This document shows, in pieces, positions 11,105 through 17,968 of a DNA stretch of 64,000 bases. Every line of letters starts with the position of its first letter. Positions within the stretch are counted from its first letter, which is position 1. This DNA is from Escherichia coli. GTDB lineage: Bacteria; Pseudomonadota; Gammaproteobacteria; Enterobacterales; Enterobacteriaceae. Under the pieces are notes generated by a model. That model did not search any database. It saw only the letters and a program-made list of their open reading frames with translations, and was not told the origin of the DNA. Location of the stretch: assembly GCF_017348835.2 (NCBI RefSeq), contig NZ_CP072315.1, one strand, 5' to 3'. Made by a program: the position numbers and the translations under genes.

Positions 11105-12145
11105 ATGGTTTCCACACACATCGGCTTCCCGACTGAAACGGTCATTGTTTTCATTGCGCTTTCAGTCGGTGCCATCTTTATTGACCTGTTTATGCACCGT
11201 GATGACAAGCCCATTTCCCTGAAGAGTGCGGCGCTCTGGTCCGTATTCTGGGTTGTGGTTGCGATGGCATTTGCCGGTTTCCTCTACATCCACCACGGTG
11301 CTGAGGTTGCCAGCCTGTTTGTAACGGGTTATGCGCTGGAGAAAGTGCTGTCGGTCGACAACCTGTTTGTCATGATGGCCATCTTCTCCTGGTTCGCCGT
11401 TCCTGATCGTTACCGCCACCGTGTTCTCTACTGGGGGATCATTGGTGCCATCGTCTTCAGGGGCATCTTTGTCGCCATCGGTACGAGCCTGCTGAGTCTG
11501 GGGCCGTATGTTGAAGTTGTCTTCGCTATCATCGTCGCCTGGACGGCGGTCATGATGCTTAAAAGCGGTGATGACGATGATGAAATTGAGGATTATTCCC
11601 AGCATCTGGCTTACCGCATGGTTAAACGCTTCTTCCCTATCTGGCCGAAGCTCAGAGGTCATGCTTTCCTGCTTAACCAGAAGGAAGTGGATGCCGAACT
11701 GGCGAAACCAGAAAACAGCGATGTCACCATTGGCCGTGGTAAAAAGGCGGCGCTGTATGCGACCCCTCTGTTCCTGTGTGTGGCCGTGGTTGAACTCTCG
11801 GATGTTATGTTTGCGTTTGACTCGGTACCGGCAATCATTGCCGTCAGTCGTGAACCGCTTATCGTCTATAGTGCCATGATGTTTGCTATCCTGGGCCTGC
11901 GTACTCTGTACTTTGTCCTTGAAGCACTGAAACAGTACCTGGTTCATCTGGAGAAGGCCGTTATCGTGCTGCTGTTCTTCATCGCGGCAAAACTGGGCCT
12001 GAATGCGACCGATCACATTTGGCATCATGGTTACAGCATCGCGGCGACAACCAGCCTGTATGTTGTACTGGGTGTTTTGGCGCTGGGCATTCTCGCAAGC
12101 GTCATATTCCCGGGCAAACCTGAATCTGAGGAAAAGGGGAGCTGA
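11105..12145 (+). CDS. terC: Integral membrane protein TerC
   Basis: 346-aa ORF with multiple hydrophobic helices. Confidence 0.85.
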   Translation: MVSTHIGFPTETVIVFIALSVGAIFIDLFMHRDDKPISLKSAALWSVFWVVVAMAFAGFLYIHHGAEVASLFVTGYALEKVLSVDNLFVMMAIFSWFAVPDRYRHRVLYWGIIGAIVFRGIFVAIGTSLLSLGPYVEVVFAIIVAWTAVMMLKSGDDDDEIEDYSQHLAYRMVKRFFPIWPKLRGHAFLLNQKEVDAELAKPENSDVTIGRGKKAALYATPLFLCVAVVELSDVMFAFDSVPAIIAVSREPLIVYSAMMFAILGLRTLYFVLEALKQYLVHLEKAVIVLLFFIAAKLGLNATDHIWHHGYSIAATTSLYVVLGVLALGILASVIFPGKPESEEKGS

Positions 12146-12193
12146 TCCCCTGAAGTGTTAACCTGAACAATTACTAATCGAAGAGGTTATTTT

Positions 12194-12772
12194 ATGAGTG
12201 TTTCTCTTTCCAAAGGCGGGAACGTCTCCCTGAGTAAAGCAGCTCCGTCAATGAAAAACGTCCTGGTGGGCCTTGGCTGGGATGCGCGTTCAACAGACGG
12301 TCAGGACTTTGACCTGGATGCTTCAGCATTCCTGCTGGCCGCAAATGGCAAAGTGCGCGGCGATTCAGATTTCATCTTCTATAACAACCTGACGTCATCT
12401 GACGGTTCCGTAACCCATACCGGTGATAACCGTACCGGTGAAGGTGATGGTGATGATGAATCGCTGAAAATTAAACTGGACGCCGTCCCGTCTGATGTTG
12501 ACAAGATCATCTTCGTTGTCACTATCCATGATGCTCAGGCTCGTCGCCAGAGCTTTGGTCAGGTATCCGGTGCGTTTATTCGCCTGGTCAATGACGATAA
12601 CCAGACTGAAGTCGCTCGCTACGATCTGACCGAAGATGCGTCCACTGAGACTGCCATGCTGTTCGGCGAGCTGTATCGCCACAATGGTGAGTGGAAATTC
12701 CGCGCAGTGGGCCAGGGTTATGCTGGTGGTCTGGCATCTGTATGTGCTCAGTACGGCATTAACGCGTCCTGA
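12194..12772 (+). CDS. terD: Tellurium resistance protein TerD
   Basis: 192-aa [16 protein letters not shown] motif. Confidence 0.9.
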
Positions 12773-12839
12773 TCGAAAAGTAACTTTTCACCCGGGGCTG
12801 TTAATGCAGCCCTCATTCAACTGTTTGCAGGAGCTAAAA

Positions 12840-13415
12840 ATGGCAGTTTCTCTCGTAAAAGGCGGCAACGTATCTCTGACCAAAGAAGCACCAACCATGA
12901 ATATCGCTATGGTTGGCCTCGGCTGGGATGCCCGTGTAACTGACGGTCAGGCTTTTGACCTGGACGCTTCCGTGTTCGCAGTAGGCGAAGACGGTAAAGT
13001 GCTGTCAGATGCGCATTTCATTTTCTTCAATAACAAAACCAGCCCTGATGGCGCGGTAGAGCACCAGGGCGACAACCGTACCGGTGAAGGCGACGGTGAC
13101 GATGAGCAGGTCAAAATCGATCTGACCAAAGTCTCAGCAGATATCAAAAAACTGGTGTTTGCCGTTACCATCTATGATGCAGAAGCGCGTAAACAAAACT
13201 TCGGCATGGTGAGCAACAGCTTCATGCGCGTTTACAACAACGACAACGGCACGGAAATTGCCCGTTTCGATCTGTCTGAAGATGCCTCAACCGAAACCGC
13301 TATGGTCTTCGGTGAACTGTATCGTCATGGCGCTGAGTGGAAGTTTAAAGCTGTCGGTCAGGGCTTTGCCGGTGGCCTGGCGGCTCTTGCCTCCCAGCAC
13401 GGCGTTAACATCTAA
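12840..13415 (+). CDS. terE: Tellurium resistance protein TerE
   Basis: ATG at 12840 after a GGAG ribosome-binding site gives 191 aa (MAVSLVKGG...), a close paralog of TerD. Confidence 0.85.
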
Positions 13416-13432
13416 AACAACGCTGAATCATA

Positions 13433-13457
13433 CCCCGGCAATGCCGGGGTTTTTTTT
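13433..13457 (+). terminator. Rho-independent terminator after terE
   Basis: Hairpin CCCCGGC-AAT-GCCGGGG followed by eight T residues. Confidence 0.75.
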
Positions 13458-13843
13458 GGTTGCGATCCGCTTTCAGGAGGGAGTAGTAGAAAGGGGACTG
13501 GAAATTTCAGAAAGCAGGTCATGTTAATTCAGACCTGAGCCTTTTAAAGGCAGGAAACGGATTTATCTCTGGTTGCTGGTTAAAGCCGGTATTCCGTGCC
13601 TTTTATCAACAGAATGCCCCTCTGATATATGTTACTTTTGCGGTTTATGAAGGAACGGGATCTGGAACATAAGATACCCGGTCAATCAAAATTCCAGTTC
13701 AACAGGTATAGAAACTTCAGCGTGATGAAATATGGTGTCACACCATATATACGCCTCACCAGAAATCCAGCGTCCTGAACTAAGCCTGGGGAACATATAT
13801 AAGCGCTGCGCTTTAAAAATAATCAAAAATCAGGAGAGTTAAT

Positions 13844-15085
13844 GTGAATCTACAATCCGGACAAAACATACCGCTTCAGCAATCTGCGATCAGGCTGAAT
13901 CTTCAGTACCCTGCCAAATCCGGCTTTAAAGGCGAACCCGATACCTGCCTCTTCCTGCTTAATGCTCAGGGAAAGGTAACCGGCGATTCTGACTTTATCT
14001 TTTATAATAATCTGTCTTCTCCTGAAGGGGCAGTAAAGCTCGTTACCGGTTCTCAGCAGTCCAGCATTGAGATAGCACTGGATCGTGTTCCGGCGAACGT
14101 CAGTAAGATTGCGATCACCGTTGTCATTGATGGTGAAGATACTATCAGTGGGCTCAGTTTATTGAGCATTCAGGCTCCTGGTATCGCTGATTTTCAGGCT
14201 GAGACTCAGGGCCGCAGTGAGAAAGCAATCATCCTGGGTGAAGTATATCGGCACAATGGCGCCTGGAAGCTTCGTGCGCTCGGGCAGGGTTTCAACGGTG
14301 GTCTTGAGCCTCTGGCCATTAGCTTTGGCGTTGATGTCGCACAGCCAGCTCCGCAGCCAGCAAAGCCTGCTCGTATCAGTCTGGAAAAGAAACTTGAAAC
14401 CAGATCTCCGCGCCTCGTAAGCCTCGCTAAAAAAGCCTCGGTCAGTCTCACTAAAAATAAACTGGACACCCTTGAGGCAGCGGTTGCATTTGTACTTGAC
14501 GCATCCGGCTCAATGAGTGGCCAGTTCAGTAAGGGCAACGTTCAGTCTGTGCTGGACCGCATCGCCGTTCTTGCCGCCCAGTTCGACGACGACGGTGAAA
14601 TGGATGTCTGGGGATTTGGAGAGAAGCACAAGAAGTATCCAAACGTCACACTGGACAACCTGGACACATATATTCAGTCCATTCGCGGGTCTGGAAAGCG
14701 TTCAGCCTGGGAGAACCTGCCGGGACTTGGTGGGACAAACAATGAGCCCCCTGTGATGGAAGAAATTGTCGACTACTTTAAGGACTCGAAAATCCCGGTA
14801 TATGTTGTATTTATTACCGATGGCGGGATCAGCAAGACCCGGGCGATTAAAGATGCAATCCGGCGTTCTGCCAACTACCCCATCTTCTGGAAGTTTGTCG
14901 GCCTGGGTGGTTCAAGCTACGGTATCCTCAAAAATCTGGATGACTTTACTGACCGCCGGGTTGATAACACCCACTTCTTTGCCATGGATGATTTCGGTTC
15001 GATCAGCGATGAAAAGTTATATGATAATTTACTGGAAGAATTCAGACCGTGGATCGATGAAACAAAAAGGTTAGGCATCCTGTAA
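13844..15085 (+). CDS. terF: TerF-like protein (TerD domain fused to vWA domain)
   Basis: 413-aa ORF with GTG start after a CAGGAGAG ribosome-binding site; TerD-like N-half and vWA-like C-half (VLDASGSM). Confidence 0.75.
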
Positions 15086-15647
15086 TACGCACAGTTTTCG
15101 CATGGTTAAAGGAGCTCTACAGCAGCTTAATACTGTAGAGCCTTTGTTCACTGGAAATCGTACAGGGAGGAGCATATGGACCGCATCAAGTACCTGAAAT
15201 GGATAGCTGAAGAATCACCAACTGATGATGAAATCGACAACTACGATAGTATCATTAGTCGGGGCGCAGAAAGGGCCGAGAAGGTTCAGTTGTCTTTAAG
15301 ACGTTAATATACGGGAGTTTAAATGTTCGCAGAAATCAAAGATAATTATTCGTTAGGTGGATAAAGAAAGGTTGCCATTACCAGCTTTCGACGAGTCGAA
15401 AATAAAAACCTTATTTATAGTGACAGGGAGTATGAGCTGACGCTTGCCAATGGAACAATAATTAAAAATGTACTTAGAAAAGAAGAGTGGGAACTGTTAG
15501 AAAGCAATTCAATTAAGGTTATATTATAACGAAAATATATTTACAGTTTTGGATAGGTTTCAAACGAGTCCGGACATTTGTACCTGAAGTATCTGACATT
15601 ACAGTTAAGTGACGATTATGCCAGCACGTCTGTTGCTGGCAGCTTAG

Positions 15648-15929
15648 CTATCGGTCTAAAAGCTGATCCATTAATAATTCTTCGTAAAGCCCAGAGGTAT
15701 CGGGCTTTATTACAATATCCGTTATTTCGAAGCGTTCAAGTACAAATTGCAGATATTCCGGAGTAACGTAGTAGGGATCAGGTTCAGCCAGATTAGTATA
15801 GAGTGGGTCTTCTGCTGCATTAATGTCATAATCAATGCACATATGAAACCACTGCAAAGGTGGATCCCAGCCTAACATCACCTGAACAATTCCCTGATTG
15901 CTTTTCACCTCATACCAGTGCTGGCTCAT
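15648..15929 (-). CDS. Hypothetical protein
   Basis: 93-aa ORF, no recognisable motif. Confidence 0.4.
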   Translation of the reverse strand: MSQHWYEVKSNQGIVQVMLGWDPPLQWFHMCIDYDINAAEDPLYTNLAEPDPYYVTPEYLQFVLERFEITDIVIKPDTSGLYEELLMDQLLDR

Positions 15930-15978
15930 ACTTAGTCCTTAAGAAAATTTGTCATCGGAAAATAACACGAAGCCTGCA

Positions 15979-16170
15979 TCATCGAGGCGCATAACCTTCT
16001 TCCCTTAACGCCTGTTGTAATTTATCAACTGCGCTTTTCATTACCCAGGCTTCTTCGTCACTCACAGCACAACCACGTAGATCGCTCCAGCTCAGACGTT
16101 TAACAAATTGAGCAAGGGCCATAGTTTCGTTCTCATCAAGCCGCAAACTCAGTGTCTCAATACCTTCCAC
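15979..16170 (-). CDS. Hypothetical small protein
   Basis: 63-aa ORF. Confidence 0.35.
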   Translation of the reverse strand: MEGIETLSLRLDENETMALAQFVKRLSWSDLRGCAVSDEEAWVMKSAVDKLQQALREEGYAPR

Positions 16171-16261
16171 AATCTAACCTCCCTTATAATGAAAAATGGC
16201 GCTTTACTTCTGACCAGATGCCGAAGCCTTGAATGCAGCCGGAACTGTCGTTGTTTCTACT

Positions 16262-16633
16262 TTACAGAAATGGAATTAAAAAGTGGTGATGCTGGGCACG
16301 TTTCTTTTCCAGCCGGGGTTTAAGCCAGAGCTGAAACTCATTCAACTTCTCAGCAGCCAAAACCGCTTCAACGGGGAAAACTTTATATTTACCCTGTTGC
16401 TGAGGTTCACCCAGCCATCGCCTGATGGCTCCGTCAGTCCATAAACGAGTCTCTTTTAGCCTAGTTACAGTGACCCATTTTCTGGACCATTCATCAAATT
16501 GTCGCTGGCGATCCCGATAACGTTGTTCTTCCTGCTGCCGAAGCCACTCGCGATCAACAGCAAATTTTCGGTATCCAACAAAGAGCCCTTGTACTTTGGC
16601 CATGTCATATTCCGGTTGCTTAGAGTTACTCAT
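16262..16633 (-). CDS. Hypothetical protein (Arg/Gln-rich)
   Basis: 123-aa ORF. Confidence 0.4.
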   Translation of the reverse strand: MSNSKQPEYDMAKVQGLFVGYRKFAVDREWLRQQEEQRYRDRQRQFDEWSRKWVTVTRLKETRLWTDGAIRRWLGEPQQQGKYKVFPVEAVLAAEKLNEFQLWLKPRLEKKRAQHHHFLIPFL

Positions 16634-16936
16634 TCAACCAAAACCTAAACGTCGATACAAACTCTGTTTCATAACCAGGGTTTTATCCTTACCGCGACAG
16701 TAAGTAACAGGGGCTGCATAAACCGGTCATTTAGTCCGTTATGCAAAAATTATTGAGGATCCGGGCTGTTAAACTGTTCTTCCTCTTTCGCTTCCGGTGA
16801 AAAGGGGAGGTGTCACCCTGCGAGCCCGTGTAGTGAAAGGGATTCGTCGTAATACAGGCCAAAGGCTAACATGACCGCAAAGGACGCCCGGGCGACCGGA
16901 TACCTGCCGGGTTGTGCGATGTAAAATCCGGAAGCA

Positions 16937-17368
16937 GTGATAACACAAACAGGCCCCTACAGCGTAAGGATTGTGATGGACGATAAAGAGCAGTTTACGA
17001 ATCTTGTGGCAAAGCATGCCTCCGGACTCACCGAAGAGCAGCTGGCCGGGTACGATGCCTGTTCCCTGGATGGTGAATGCGTCACGCCTTCATACGAGGT
17101 TTTCCGGGGGTATCGTACCCGCCACACACTGGATGAATTTCTGGAGATGGCCATATCGCTGAATGCCATCCACCCGGATGAATATTTAACGGATATGCTG
17201 CTGAAGCCTCATGAGGTGATCGGCGCTCTGGCCGATGAAGGCGACCAGCTGAACAACGCCACCCCGGTTTATTTCTTTCCGGATACCGGCGTCTATGCAG
17301 CGGCCGTTAGTGAAACCCGGGTGCTCGATGCCTGGCTTTGCTGGCCATGCTACCCGGCGAACTGGTAA
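16937..17368 (+). CDS. Hypothetical protein
   Basis: 143-aa ORF. Confidence 0.4.
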   Translation: MITQTGPYSVRIVMDDKEQFTNLVAKHASGLTEEQLAGYDACSLDGECVTPSYEVFRGYRTRHTLDEFLEMAISLNAIHPDEYLTDMLLKPHEVIGALADEGDQLNNATPVYFFPDTGVYAAAVSETRVLDAWLCWPCYPANW

Positions 17369-17439
17369 CGCGGCCGTTGGAATTGCACCGGCCGGATACG
17401 AATTTAACCGATCCCGTGGCGGGAAGGCTATCAGAGTTG

Positions 17440-17685
17440 CATGTCCTCATCCCTCAAGCCCCCTGCCAGGCCCCAACGTGCTGTCAGGCTTCGCCTGATT
17501 CCCGATCTGCGCCGATACTTCAGCCGATAACTTTTTGTTTTCTTTTTATTTTCTTCCCATTTCCTCAAAAATCGCGGGCGGCGTGGACAGGGCACCATTG
17601 CCGCATGTGGGGTCTTAATAAGGGCAGGGTGGTCAGTTTTGCTCGATGCCATGGGTAGGCCCTCCCCTTCATGGGATGAGGACAT
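17440..17685. repeat. Pair of perfect 15-bp inverted repeats flanking a non-coding segment
   Basis: GCATGTCCTCATCCC at 17440-17454 and its reverse complement GGGATGAGGACATGC at 17671-17685. Confidence 0.6.
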
Positions 17686-17840
17686 GCAAGTAAGCTAACT
17701 ATCTGAAATGACGAAGGTTCATTTGGTGAATGTCGCTTCATATTAATGTTGTGTCACTTATGATCGTATGTAGCTGGTTGCAAAGAGGAGCGATGAGACA
17801 ATAAAGTTGTATCGCTAACAAGATTTATGCTGCCACATAG

Positions 17841-17940
17841 TAACAGCCTAAAAGTTGTACGCCCTATTTAACAGCTTTTAGGCTGTTAATTTGATATTAC
17901 AGCTTTTAGGGTGTATGTTTAGGAAACAGCCTGCAAGGTG
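17841..17940 (+). promoter_or_regulatory. Four iterated operator-like motifs upstream of hipB
   Basis: ACAGC(C/T)TNNAAG-like motif at about 17842, 17871, 17899 and 17926, partly palindromic. Confidence 0.45.
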
Positions 17941-17968
17941 TATCAGAGGAAACTACTGAGGCCAGCTT

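Follow-up and report, generated by a model that had tools for sequence, protein, structure and literature searches.

The window, by which we mean the whole stretch of 64,000 nucleotides of Escherichia coli DNA that was analysed, is 100% identical to IncHI2 plasmids, for example pSTM6-275. Plasmids of this type rank among the main vehicles of mcr-1, oqxAB, blaCTX-M and metal resistance. The cluster studied here occupies an interval bounded on the left by terF and on the right by the hipBA toxin–antitoxin genes. Its left anchor, terF (13844–15085, plus strand), is the last gene of terZABCDEF and encodes a TerD domain and a TerF-type vWA domain (Pfam TerD, 4e-35; vWA-TerF-like, 2.6e-69); in pSTM6-275 it is annotated as a VWA domain protein. 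We found the region in 1,478 plasmid records and the cluster in ~8% of complete E. coli genomes (411/5,426). The region is a hotspot for IS insertions and deletions.

The original prediction had named three minus-strand ORFs (93, 63 and 123 aa), one plus-strand ORF (143 aa) and a short ORF at 15179–15307 in this interval. All of them exist, at the coordinates given, except that the short ORF (43 aa, plus strand) starts at 15176 and not at 15179. Two of the features in the interval are gene remnants; the other four are genuine small genes, intact, conserved and apparently dispensable, which we refer to as orf93, orf63, orf113 and orf130. In the K. variicola IncHI2 plasmid NZ_CP044051.1 (L017), terF is followed by rightward genes for a 151-aa protein, a 171-aa RelB-domain protein, a 92-aa zinc-ribbon protein and a 68-aa protein, then by leftward genes for the 93-, 63- and 113-aa proteins, and then by the rightward gene for the 130-aa protein, further genes and hipBA. 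Compared with that plasmid, the lineage of the window carries three lesions, namely the loss of 1,315 bp, a nonsense change in the 68-aa gene, and the absence of the genes that separate orf130 from hipB. In the comparator loci, nothing matches the unique 130 nt at 17690–17819.

Two gene remnants beside terF

The original prediction had suspected decayed genes next to terF, and rightly so. The 43-aa ORF (15176–15307, plus strand) is a chimeric remnant of a deletion, with its junction against L017 at 15223|15224. Positions 15176–15223 are the first 16 codons of the 151-aa gene, including a strong ribosome-binding site, whilst 15224–15307 are the last 27 codons and the stop of the 92-aa gene, whose product is Cys-rich (CPQC...CTSC). 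Window positions 12000–15223 align with L017 1263–4486, and 15224–17689 with L017 5802–8265; the 1,315 bp missing from the window are L017 4487–5801. The 151-, 171-, 92- and 68-aa genes are intact in both L017 and L016; the RelB domain belongs to the 171-aa protein, and the zinc-ribbon matches of the 92-aa protein are weak. CP099295.1 tolerates an ISVsa5 insertion immediately after terF, and in that record the 43-aa ORF is no longer annotated.

The second feature, described in the original prediction as a degenerate frame at 15360–15530, is also real. It is a 68-codon frame (15323–15529, plus strand) with a good ribosome-binding site and one in-frame TAA at 15362–15364, and is a nonsense pseudogene of the gene that encodes WP_020833827.1 when intact. 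The lesion is a C>A change at 15364: codon 14 is TAC (Tyr) in the intact orthologues of L016 and L017, versus TAA in the window. Beyond this change, the frame differs from L017 at seven positions, six of them third codon positions and one an Arg/Lys replacement. By tblastn, the frame is present in 717 plasmids; in the sampled IncHI2 rows, 67/68 residues match and no CDS is annotated, as expected of the stop allele, judged in these rows from matches and annotation. Illegitimate recombination removed the 1,315 bp and so created the chimeric ORF, and a nonsense mutation disabled the 68-aa gene.

The four intact genes

The rightmost of the three leftward genes, orf113 (16262–16603, minus strand), encodes a basic 113-aa protein (pI 10.3). 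Homologues and the NCBI annotation place its start at ATG 16603, and the predicted 123-aa ORF (16262–16633) is therefore an over-extension. Its dN/dS lies within 0.04–0.16. An AF2 model has a pLDDT of 93–95 over residues 41–100 and shows strands at residues 43–45, 68–70 and 73–77 and helices at 46–52 and 57–63, in the order beta-alpha-alpha-beta-beta. From this model, orf113 would be a small basic DNA-binding protein with a winged helix of the excisionase/MerR type. Its C-terminal helices give a weak JetB match (6.6e-5), and its best PDB match is a 53-aa chain named "Hachiman" (8tto), which is not below E = 0.25 and is not traceable in the literature. Phage genomes held no orf113 homologue. 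The genes that follow orf113 homologues encode unrelated small peptides; they were tested as possible DUF7706 members and are not DUF7706.

The middle gene, orf63 (15979–16170, minus strand), has a GTG start and a strong AGGGAGG ribosome-binding site, and encodes a 63-aa protein of pI 4.6. The ORFs of 93, 63, 123 and 143 aa had been described as free of recognisable motifs. The other three have no Pfam family, but orf63 is a member of Pfam DUF7706 (PF24806, E = 1.1e-25; a score of 89.9 bits, where the Pfam gathering threshold is 27; residues 7–63 on model positions 7–63 of 63) and is currently named "DUF7706 family protein" in RefSeq. The homologue on pOXA-48 is 51% identical, and is reported to be among the most abundant plasmid proteins (bioRxiv 10.64898/2026.07.12.738056). 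Neither orf93 nor orf113 adjoins the DUF7706 homologues of pOXA-48 and of loci L018 and L019, and L021 has DUF7706 without orf93.

The last gene, orf93 (15648–15929, minus strand), is preceded by a Shine-Dalgarno sequence and encodes an acidic 93-aa protein (pI 4.05, net charge −13). It is a real gene, and belongs to an orphan family of enterobacterial plasmids with relatives of 36–40% identity in other small plasmids. Against diverged homologues, dN is 0.16–0.20 with dS saturated. In ~440 plasmids orf93 is reduced to its first 20 codons, whilst orf63 (447 records at 92%) and orf113 (445 at 98%) are retained, and in pF2_18C_HI2 an IS3 lies inside orf93. The original prediction had proposed to look for conservation of the orf93/orf63 pair (15648–16170), and homologues of either gene prove to occur without the other: beside orf93 homologues of 38–78% identity, a DUF7706 neighbour is never present (L002–L006, L028 and L029), and their upstream genes are unrelated. 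The predicted structure of orf93 (pLDDT 71) gave only fold matches below significance.

On the other strand, orf130 (16976–17368, plus strand) encodes an acidic 130-aa protein (pI 4.26, net charge −15) with a conserved C-terminal motif, PVYFFPxxGVYA...VWLSWPxYPxGW. The predicted 143-aa ORF, from GTG 16937, is again an over-extension: homology to pHCM1 (IncHI1) begins only at 16947, the homologues in an exhaustive HMMER search (23 representative clusters) start at residue 14, and pHCM1, newer PGAP records and the K. variicola plasmid all have an annotated CDS of 393 nt, which in the window starts at ATG 16976. Matches of that search to proteins of 569–2,839 aa were set aside as apparently low-complexity repeats, as both of those inspected were. 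The gene is preceded by a Shine-Dalgarno sequence, its dN/dS is 0.00–0.16, and it has no match in Pfam, the PDB or other families.

Searches of the five ORFs against Pfam, NCBIfam, PHROGs and PADLOC returned DUF7706 as the sole family, the remainder being the weak JetB match and sub-threshold noise (Cdh, Bestrophin, transthyretin). Members of the ORF families, scanned against Pfam, gave nothing meaningful, and sequence and profile searches of the PDB gave nothing below E = 0.25. Near several homologues lie neighbours of ~330 aa, which on comparison are not one family. Rfam had no match at the locus. In the literature we found no experiment or transcript data on the locus and no paper that mentions the accessions of the cluster proteins, and the terF–hipB interval is not dealt with in the comparative and transcriptome papers on IncHI plasmids that we found.

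Arrangement, selection and flanking DNA

Between orf113 and orf130 lies a divergent intergenic region of 372 bp (16604–16975) that is 98.1% identical to L017. It contains recombination breakpoints, since homology to L013 stops at 16624 and homology to L015 starts at 16661. An 82-aa minus-strand ORF within it is not coding, differing at six residues from the L017 copy. An IS5 insertion in this region is tolerated in pEh3_OXA48. Promoter-like hexamers, read by eye, are weak; scans for promoters and terminators yielded no convincing candidate, and in particular none for a sigma-70 promoter ahead of orf113 or orf130, and the fold of the 16661–16975 leader is unremarkable (z = −1.1).

Downstream of orf130, and outside the interval of the original prediction, we observed a conserved non-coding element of 253 nt (17437–17689), bounded by a perfect 17-nt inverted repeat and forming one unit with orf130. 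All IncHI lineages diverge at its right end, 17689.

At the level of sequence, the four genes are shown to form two separate blocks. The first, orf93-orf63-orf113, accompanies the ter operon, also where the latter lies on IncF plasmids. The second, orf130 with its downstream hairpin element, is part of the IncHI backbone and is conserved in both IncHI1 and IncHI2; IncHI1 plasmids have orf130 without orf93, orf63 and orf113, and in other IncHI2 plasmids it lies ~20 kb from them. Each gene family also occurs alone in other plasmids and in integrative elements. As judged from substitution patterns, orf93, orf113 and orf130 are demonstrably under purifying selection. The corresponding figure for orf63 (dN/dS ~0.35–0.40) is tentative, coming from only 5–7 differences. 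That the ORFs are not products of chance is also indicated by the 1,478 plasmid records and by the Shine-Dalgarno sequences before orf93, orf63 and orf130.

What the interval is likely to encode

We consider it probable that the terF–hipB interval is mosaic, partly decayed IncHI2 accessory DNA and not one functional system. Its likeliest content is one small DNA-binding regulator together with orphan accessory proteins. Most likely, orf113 regulates its own leftward operon, orf113-orf63-orf93, in which the gaps between the genes are 91 and 49 nt and no terminator-like site was found between them. Judged by their size and charge, orf63, orf93 and orf130 are most likely small acidic cytoplasmic proteins that bind other proteins in the interplay of plasmid and host. 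As orf113 and orf63 are co-retained in all ter-linked versions, they could be a functional pair. The four genes appear to be dispensable for plasmid maintenance, given the ~440 plasmids that keep orf63 and orf113 with a 20-codon stub of orf93, and the IS3 within orf93.

The original prediction had thought of addiction functions, and orf63/orf93 or orf113/orf63 might accordingly be read as a type II toxin–antitoxin module that stabilises the plasmid. We give this very little chance, despite the small, co-oriented neighbouring genes with short gaps, the real hipBA module that adjoins them and the RelB-domain gene that belongs to the uninterrupted module. The basic, DNA-binding-like orf113 followed by a small acidic protein has a superficial likeness to a regulator and its partner, and both major IncHI2 lineages co-retain orf113 and orf63. 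However, the searches of Pfam, NCBIfam and PADLOC gave no match to a toxin or antitoxin family, and the partners are not conserved: orf93, DUF7706 and orf113 homologues have other partners or none, and those of DUF7706 are either solitary or placed last in another operon. Moreover, orf93 is freely lost, and since orf63 is kept without it in ~440 plasmids, as well as in the one with an IS in orf93, orf93 cannot be an essential antitoxin. We give almost no credence to the opposite extreme, in which the ORFs would be relics without function that make no protein under selection. Two neighbouring features are genuine wrecks in a hotspot of deletion and IS insertion, but the dN/dS of orf93, orf113 and orf130 is well below 1, diverged full-length homologues exist in other genera, and a DUF7706 protein is abundantly expressed from pOXA-48.

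An anti-restriction or anti-defence role, in which orf93 and/or orf130 are new acidic DNA mimics or inhibitors that aid establishment in new hosts, strikes us as unlikely. Both proteins are small, strongly acidic and confined to plasmids and other mobile elements, and distant orf93 homologues lie near an ArdB-type "Antirestrict" gene or in an IncN-like CcgAII region. Against this stand the absence of homology to ArdA, ArdB/KlcA, Ocr or any PADLOC or PHROG family (for ArdA, PF07275, and ArdB/KlcA, PF03230, no Pfam match at E <= 1 was obtained with orf93, orf113 or orf130, nor with family members of orf113 and orf130), the sub-significant fold matches of the orf93 model, and the hundreds of successful plasmids that do without orf93. 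No ORF of the 64-kb window exceeds 730 aa, the length that a relaxase would be expected to have, so that a leading-region position is conjectural. It is highly unlikely that orf93, orf63 and orf113, inherited as a block with terZABCDEF, serve the Ter system as a functional accessory in resistance to stress, phage and colicins. IncHI2 plasmids, an Enterobacter IncF plasmid and the more diverged ter locus L020 (DUF7706 identity 81%) do have the block after terF, but this link is positional only: many ter-positive plasmids (L013, L016 and L020) have lost, truncated or frameshifted genes of the block, and all three families are found elsewhere without ter. Two bolder proposals, which we regard as decidedly unlikely, are that orf93 and/or orf130 found new families of acidic anti-defence proteins or host-factor inhibitors, and that 17437–17689 is an undescribed structured RNA or recombination site. 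Were the first true, new inhibitor families would be carried by >1,000 clinically important IncHI plasmids; were the second, the element with its invariant 17-nt repeat would mark the edge of cargo exchange in the IncHI backbone, given that its final base is the exact point of divergence of every lineage.

If the interval is a decaying and dispensable block rather than an addiction system, as we favour, it drops off the list of candidate stability determinants. The analysis also corrects two gene starts and explains two mis-annotated "hypothetical proteins". The 1,315-bp deletion and the TAA allele, versus the alternative deletion that removes orf93, offer clean typing markers for IncHI2 lineages, whilst DUF7706 and the orphan families of orf93, orf113 and orf130 are cheap targets for screens of anti-defence and regulation.

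With type II modules such as hipBA and relBE, the cluster has in common that its genes are small, adjacent and co-oriented and lie on a large plasmid of low copy number; unlike them, it has no family match, its pairing is not conserved, and one of the partners is lost freely. Similarly, orf93 and orf130 resemble ArdA, Ocr and ArdB/KlcA in size, acidity and restriction to plasmids, but not in sequence, nor, for the orf93 model, in fold. The likeness of orf63 to the 7.8-kDa DUF7706 protein of pOXA-48 (IncL) is closer, as both are small, acidic and plasmid-borne and have a common ALAQ-VKRL-SD-R...EEGYAPR motif. The pOXA-48 gene, however, is the last in an operon with genes for RelB-domain, HTH, 227-aa and 72-aa proteins, next to umuDC, whereas orf63 sits between orf113 and orf93. 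Finally, the modelled core of orf113 (residues 43–77) appears to share its strand-helix-helix-hairpin topology with TorI, the AlpA-family excisionase of GIsul2, Pukovnik Xis and the DNA-binding domain of pSK1 Par, and, like proteins of the excisionase/MerR type, orf113 is small, basic and found on mobile elements, sometimes beside a relaxase and an integrase.

Gene content of the terF-hipB interval

The interval between terF and hipB is an ordinary plasmid accessory region, much sequenced yet uncharacterised, that holds two wrecked genes and four orphan genes. Positions 15000-17700 recur at 100% identity in many IncHI2 plasmids from Escherichia, Salmonella, Klebsiella and Enterobacter, such as pSTM6-275, in which the interval is flanked by terZABCDE-terF and hipBA and encloses five NCBI "hypothetical proteins"; the current RefSeq name of one interval gene is "DUF7706 family protein". 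Part or all of this stretch occurs in 1,478 plasmid records. Among complete E. coli genomes, 411 of 5,426 carry the interval, and 431 of its 455 places are plasmid-borne.

All five predicted ORFs were found in the window where they had been placed. The minus strand carries orf93 (93 aa; 15648-15929), orf63 (63 aa; 15979-16170) and a 123-aa ORF (16262-16633), and the plus strand a 143-aa ORF (16937-17368). In most full-length homologues, the "123-aa" protein has 113 aa and starts at the second methionine (ATG 16603), as it does in the PGAP annotation; we therefore call this gene orf113. Homologues of the "143-aa" protein start at residue 14 (ATG 16976), where there is a TAAGGA ribosome-binding site. 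The resulting 393-nt gene, orf130, is annotated as such in the IncHI1 plasmid pHCM1 and in newer records, and homology with pHCM1 begins no earlier than 16947, within the supposed N-terminal extension. Shine-Dalgarno sequences are good for orf93, orf63 and orf130, and weak for orf113. The original prediction saw no recognisable motifs in these ORFs. This held in Pfam, NCBIfam, PHROGs and PADLOC searches for all except the 63-aa protein, which belongs over its full length to Pfam DUF7706 (E = 1e-25).

Judged by sequence comparison, the four intact genes are real. The orf93 protein is identical to that of the Klebsiella variicola IncHI2 plasmid NZ_CP044051.1 (locus L017), with 2 synonymous differences, and dN is 0.16-0.20 against homologues of 68-74% identity, at which dS is saturated. 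For orf113, dN/dS is 0.06-0.09 (against L017 and the Enterobacter plasmid OW849517.1, locus L013), and for orf130 it is 0.00-0.16 (against L017, pR47-309 and pHCM1). The value of 0.35-0.40 for orf63 (against L017 and L013) is based on 5-7 differences. An 82-aa ORF in the orf113/orf130 intergenic region is not coding, since 6 of its 82 residues differ from the L017 copy.

Decay of the left part

The suspicion that decayed genes lie left of orf93 was borne out by three related plasmids: L013, L017 and the Citrobacter plasmid NZ_CP055589.1. In L013, a 151-aa gene starts exactly at the start of the 43-aa ORF (15176-15307, plus strand). The Citrobacter plasmid has, in order, the 151-aa gene, an IS66-family insertion, a 171-aa RelB-domain protein, a 92-aa Cys-rich ORF, a 68-aa gene and, on the opposite strand, orf93. 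The full series without the insertion sequence is found in L017 (terF, 151, 171, 92, 68, then orf93, orf63 and orf113 on the opposite strand), followed by orf130, a 59-aa gene, a trypsin-like protease, a membrane protein and a 462-aa protein. Window positions 12000-15223 align with L017 1263-4486, and 15224-17689 with L017 5802-8265; 1,315 bp are thus missing from the window, because the adjacent bases 15223 and 15224 align to L017 4486 and 5802. Microhomology is not evident at the junction (CACCAACT/GATGATGAA). Across it, the first 16 codons of the 151-aa gene run in frame into the final 27 codons of the 92-aa gene, and this chimera is the 43-aa ORF.

The neighbouring 68-codon frame (15323-15529), previously noted as degenerate, has one internal stop. 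Relative to the intact allele of the 68-aa gene, it carries TAC>TAA at codon 14, six changes at third positions and one between Arg and Lys; on this pattern, the gene was constrained until recently. The frame is found in 717 plasmids; in the sampled IncHI2 records it is unannotated and matches to the degree that the stop allele predicts, an assignment made from identity. Plasmids of the L013 type carry a different deletion, which begins shortly before the 171-aa gene and ends in codon 18-20 of orf93, and only the first 20 codons of orf93 are left in ~440 plasmids. A 7-bp GC-rich hairpin (15622-15642; GCCAGCA-N7-TGCTGGC) with no U-tract on either strand lies 6 nt past the orf93 stop, where orf93 and the 68-codon pseudogene converge.

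Mosaic structure and a conserved non-coding element

Comparison of the relatives indicates that the four intact genes are not one system. Relatives of orf93 at 68-78% identity lie in other small-gene plasmid clusters, with unrelated upstream genes and without either DUF7706 or orf113. A 71% DUF7706 relative stands alone close to a RecA-dependent nuclease gene, and a 51% relative is the last gene of a different operon on pOXA-48. Relatives of orf113 (54-67% identity) occur in elements of Xenorhabdus, Vibrio, Brenneria and Klebsiella, those in Brenneria directly upstream of a TraI_2 relaxase and integrase; the genes that follow are unrelated small ones (a hydrophobic peptide, a DUF4236 protein and others). 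In IncHI1 (pHCM1, 89% DNA identity), orf130 is present without orf93, orf63 and orf113. Its family, which numbers just 23 representative clusters in 1.8 billion proteins, is defined by a conserved C-terminal motif, PVYFFPxxGVYA…VWLSWPxYPxGW.

In the interval, a ter-linked block (the 151-aa gene to orf113) thus meets an IncHI backbone block (orf130 and a downstream element), with breakpoints at 16624 and 16661. IncF plasmids also carry the ter-linked block, as does L020, a diverged ter-linked locus. The second main IncHI2 lineage (~440 plasmids of the Enterobacter and pR47-309 type) has orf113 and orf130 ~20 kb apart, which makes the divergent intergenic region a recombination joint (16624-16661). 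Immediately left of orf130, pR47-309 has genes for a helicase and a 328-aa protein. The segments concerned are L013 from 6520 on and, in the pR47-309 locus L015, the part up to 4948.

Rightward, the match to L017, L015 and pHCM1 ends at 17689. The next 130 nt (17690-17819) have no match in the comparator loci, and the hipB control region continues from 17820. The window lineage is without the 59-aa gene, trypsin-like serine protease, membrane protein and 462-aa gene found in other IncHI2 plasmids between the repeat element and hipB (L015 5976-9311; L017 from 8266); in pR47-309, hipBA comes after the last three of these. Four copies of a palindromic ACAGC-N6-GCTGT-like motif (17836-17942), close upstream of hipB (17969), presumably serve as operators for HipB in hipBA autoregulation. 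Natural insertions indicate that large parts of the interval are dispensable: ISVsa5 just downstream of terF (in a plasmid in which the 43-aa ORF is unannotated), IS3 within orf93 and IS5 within the orf113/orf130 intergenic region. Between the terE-like gene and terF, sub-threshold Rfam matches at 13385-13457 (anti-hemB, E 0.017; Betaproteobacteria toxic sRNA and PsrR1, E ~1) probably reflect just a terminator-like hairpin.

The downstream element is a 253-nt non-coding sequence (17437-17689), 68 nt past orf130, with a perfect 17-nt inverted repeat at its ends (TTGCATGTCCTCATCCC / GGGATGAGGACATGCAA). All IncHI plasmids examined have it after orf130, and 1,451 plasmids carry one copy each. The arms are perfect and invariant in IncHI1, IncHI1B and IncHI2, the right interior half has diverged to ~50%, and all lineages diverge completely straight after 17689, its final base. 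Its predicted RNA fold is better than that of shuffled sequence (z = -4.2). Compensatory changes occur in nine of the predicted pairs, and Rfam gave no match. The element could be a structured RNA, a pair of protein-binding sites or a recombination site.

Possible functions

Among the four orphan genes, orf113 is probably a DNA-binding regulator. The orf93 model is mediocre (pLDDT 71) and gave no significant fold match. The orf63 protein has a pI of 4.6; its DUF7706 relative on pOXA-48 is reported to be among the most abundant plasmid-encoded proteins (2026 preprint, bioRxiv 10.64898/2026.07.12.738056).

The original prediction also raised addiction or anti-restriction functions. Addiction is not supported: membership of a toxin-antitoxin system failed on both family match and gene pairing, and orf93 is ruled out as an antitoxin because it has been lost where orf63 is kept. 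Near these small genes there are repeatedly proteins that combine a RelB/DinJ-like N-terminal domain with a long unrelated C-terminal extension, in an IncHI2 plasmid (171 aa; L017 5071-5586), pOXA-48 (395 aa; L021 2541-3728) and a Brenneria integrative element (318 aa; L011 926-1882); the first two have a Pfam RelB match, and the third was assigned by N-terminal sequence alone. In L020, a metagenome-style assembly whose orf113 copy is frameshifted at the C-terminus, a gene with pertussis-toxin-S1 / enterotoxin-A (ADP-ribosyltransferase) Pfam matches (1948-2733) lies ~2 kb from the orf113 homologue. Homology gave no support for anti-restriction among the interval proteins; charge (pI 4.05 for orf93 and 4.26 for orf130) and some neighbourhoods of distant homologues hint faintly at such a role. 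Relatives of orf93 at 36-40% identity adjoin parA and ArdB-type genes, or lie within an IncN-like CcgAII region.
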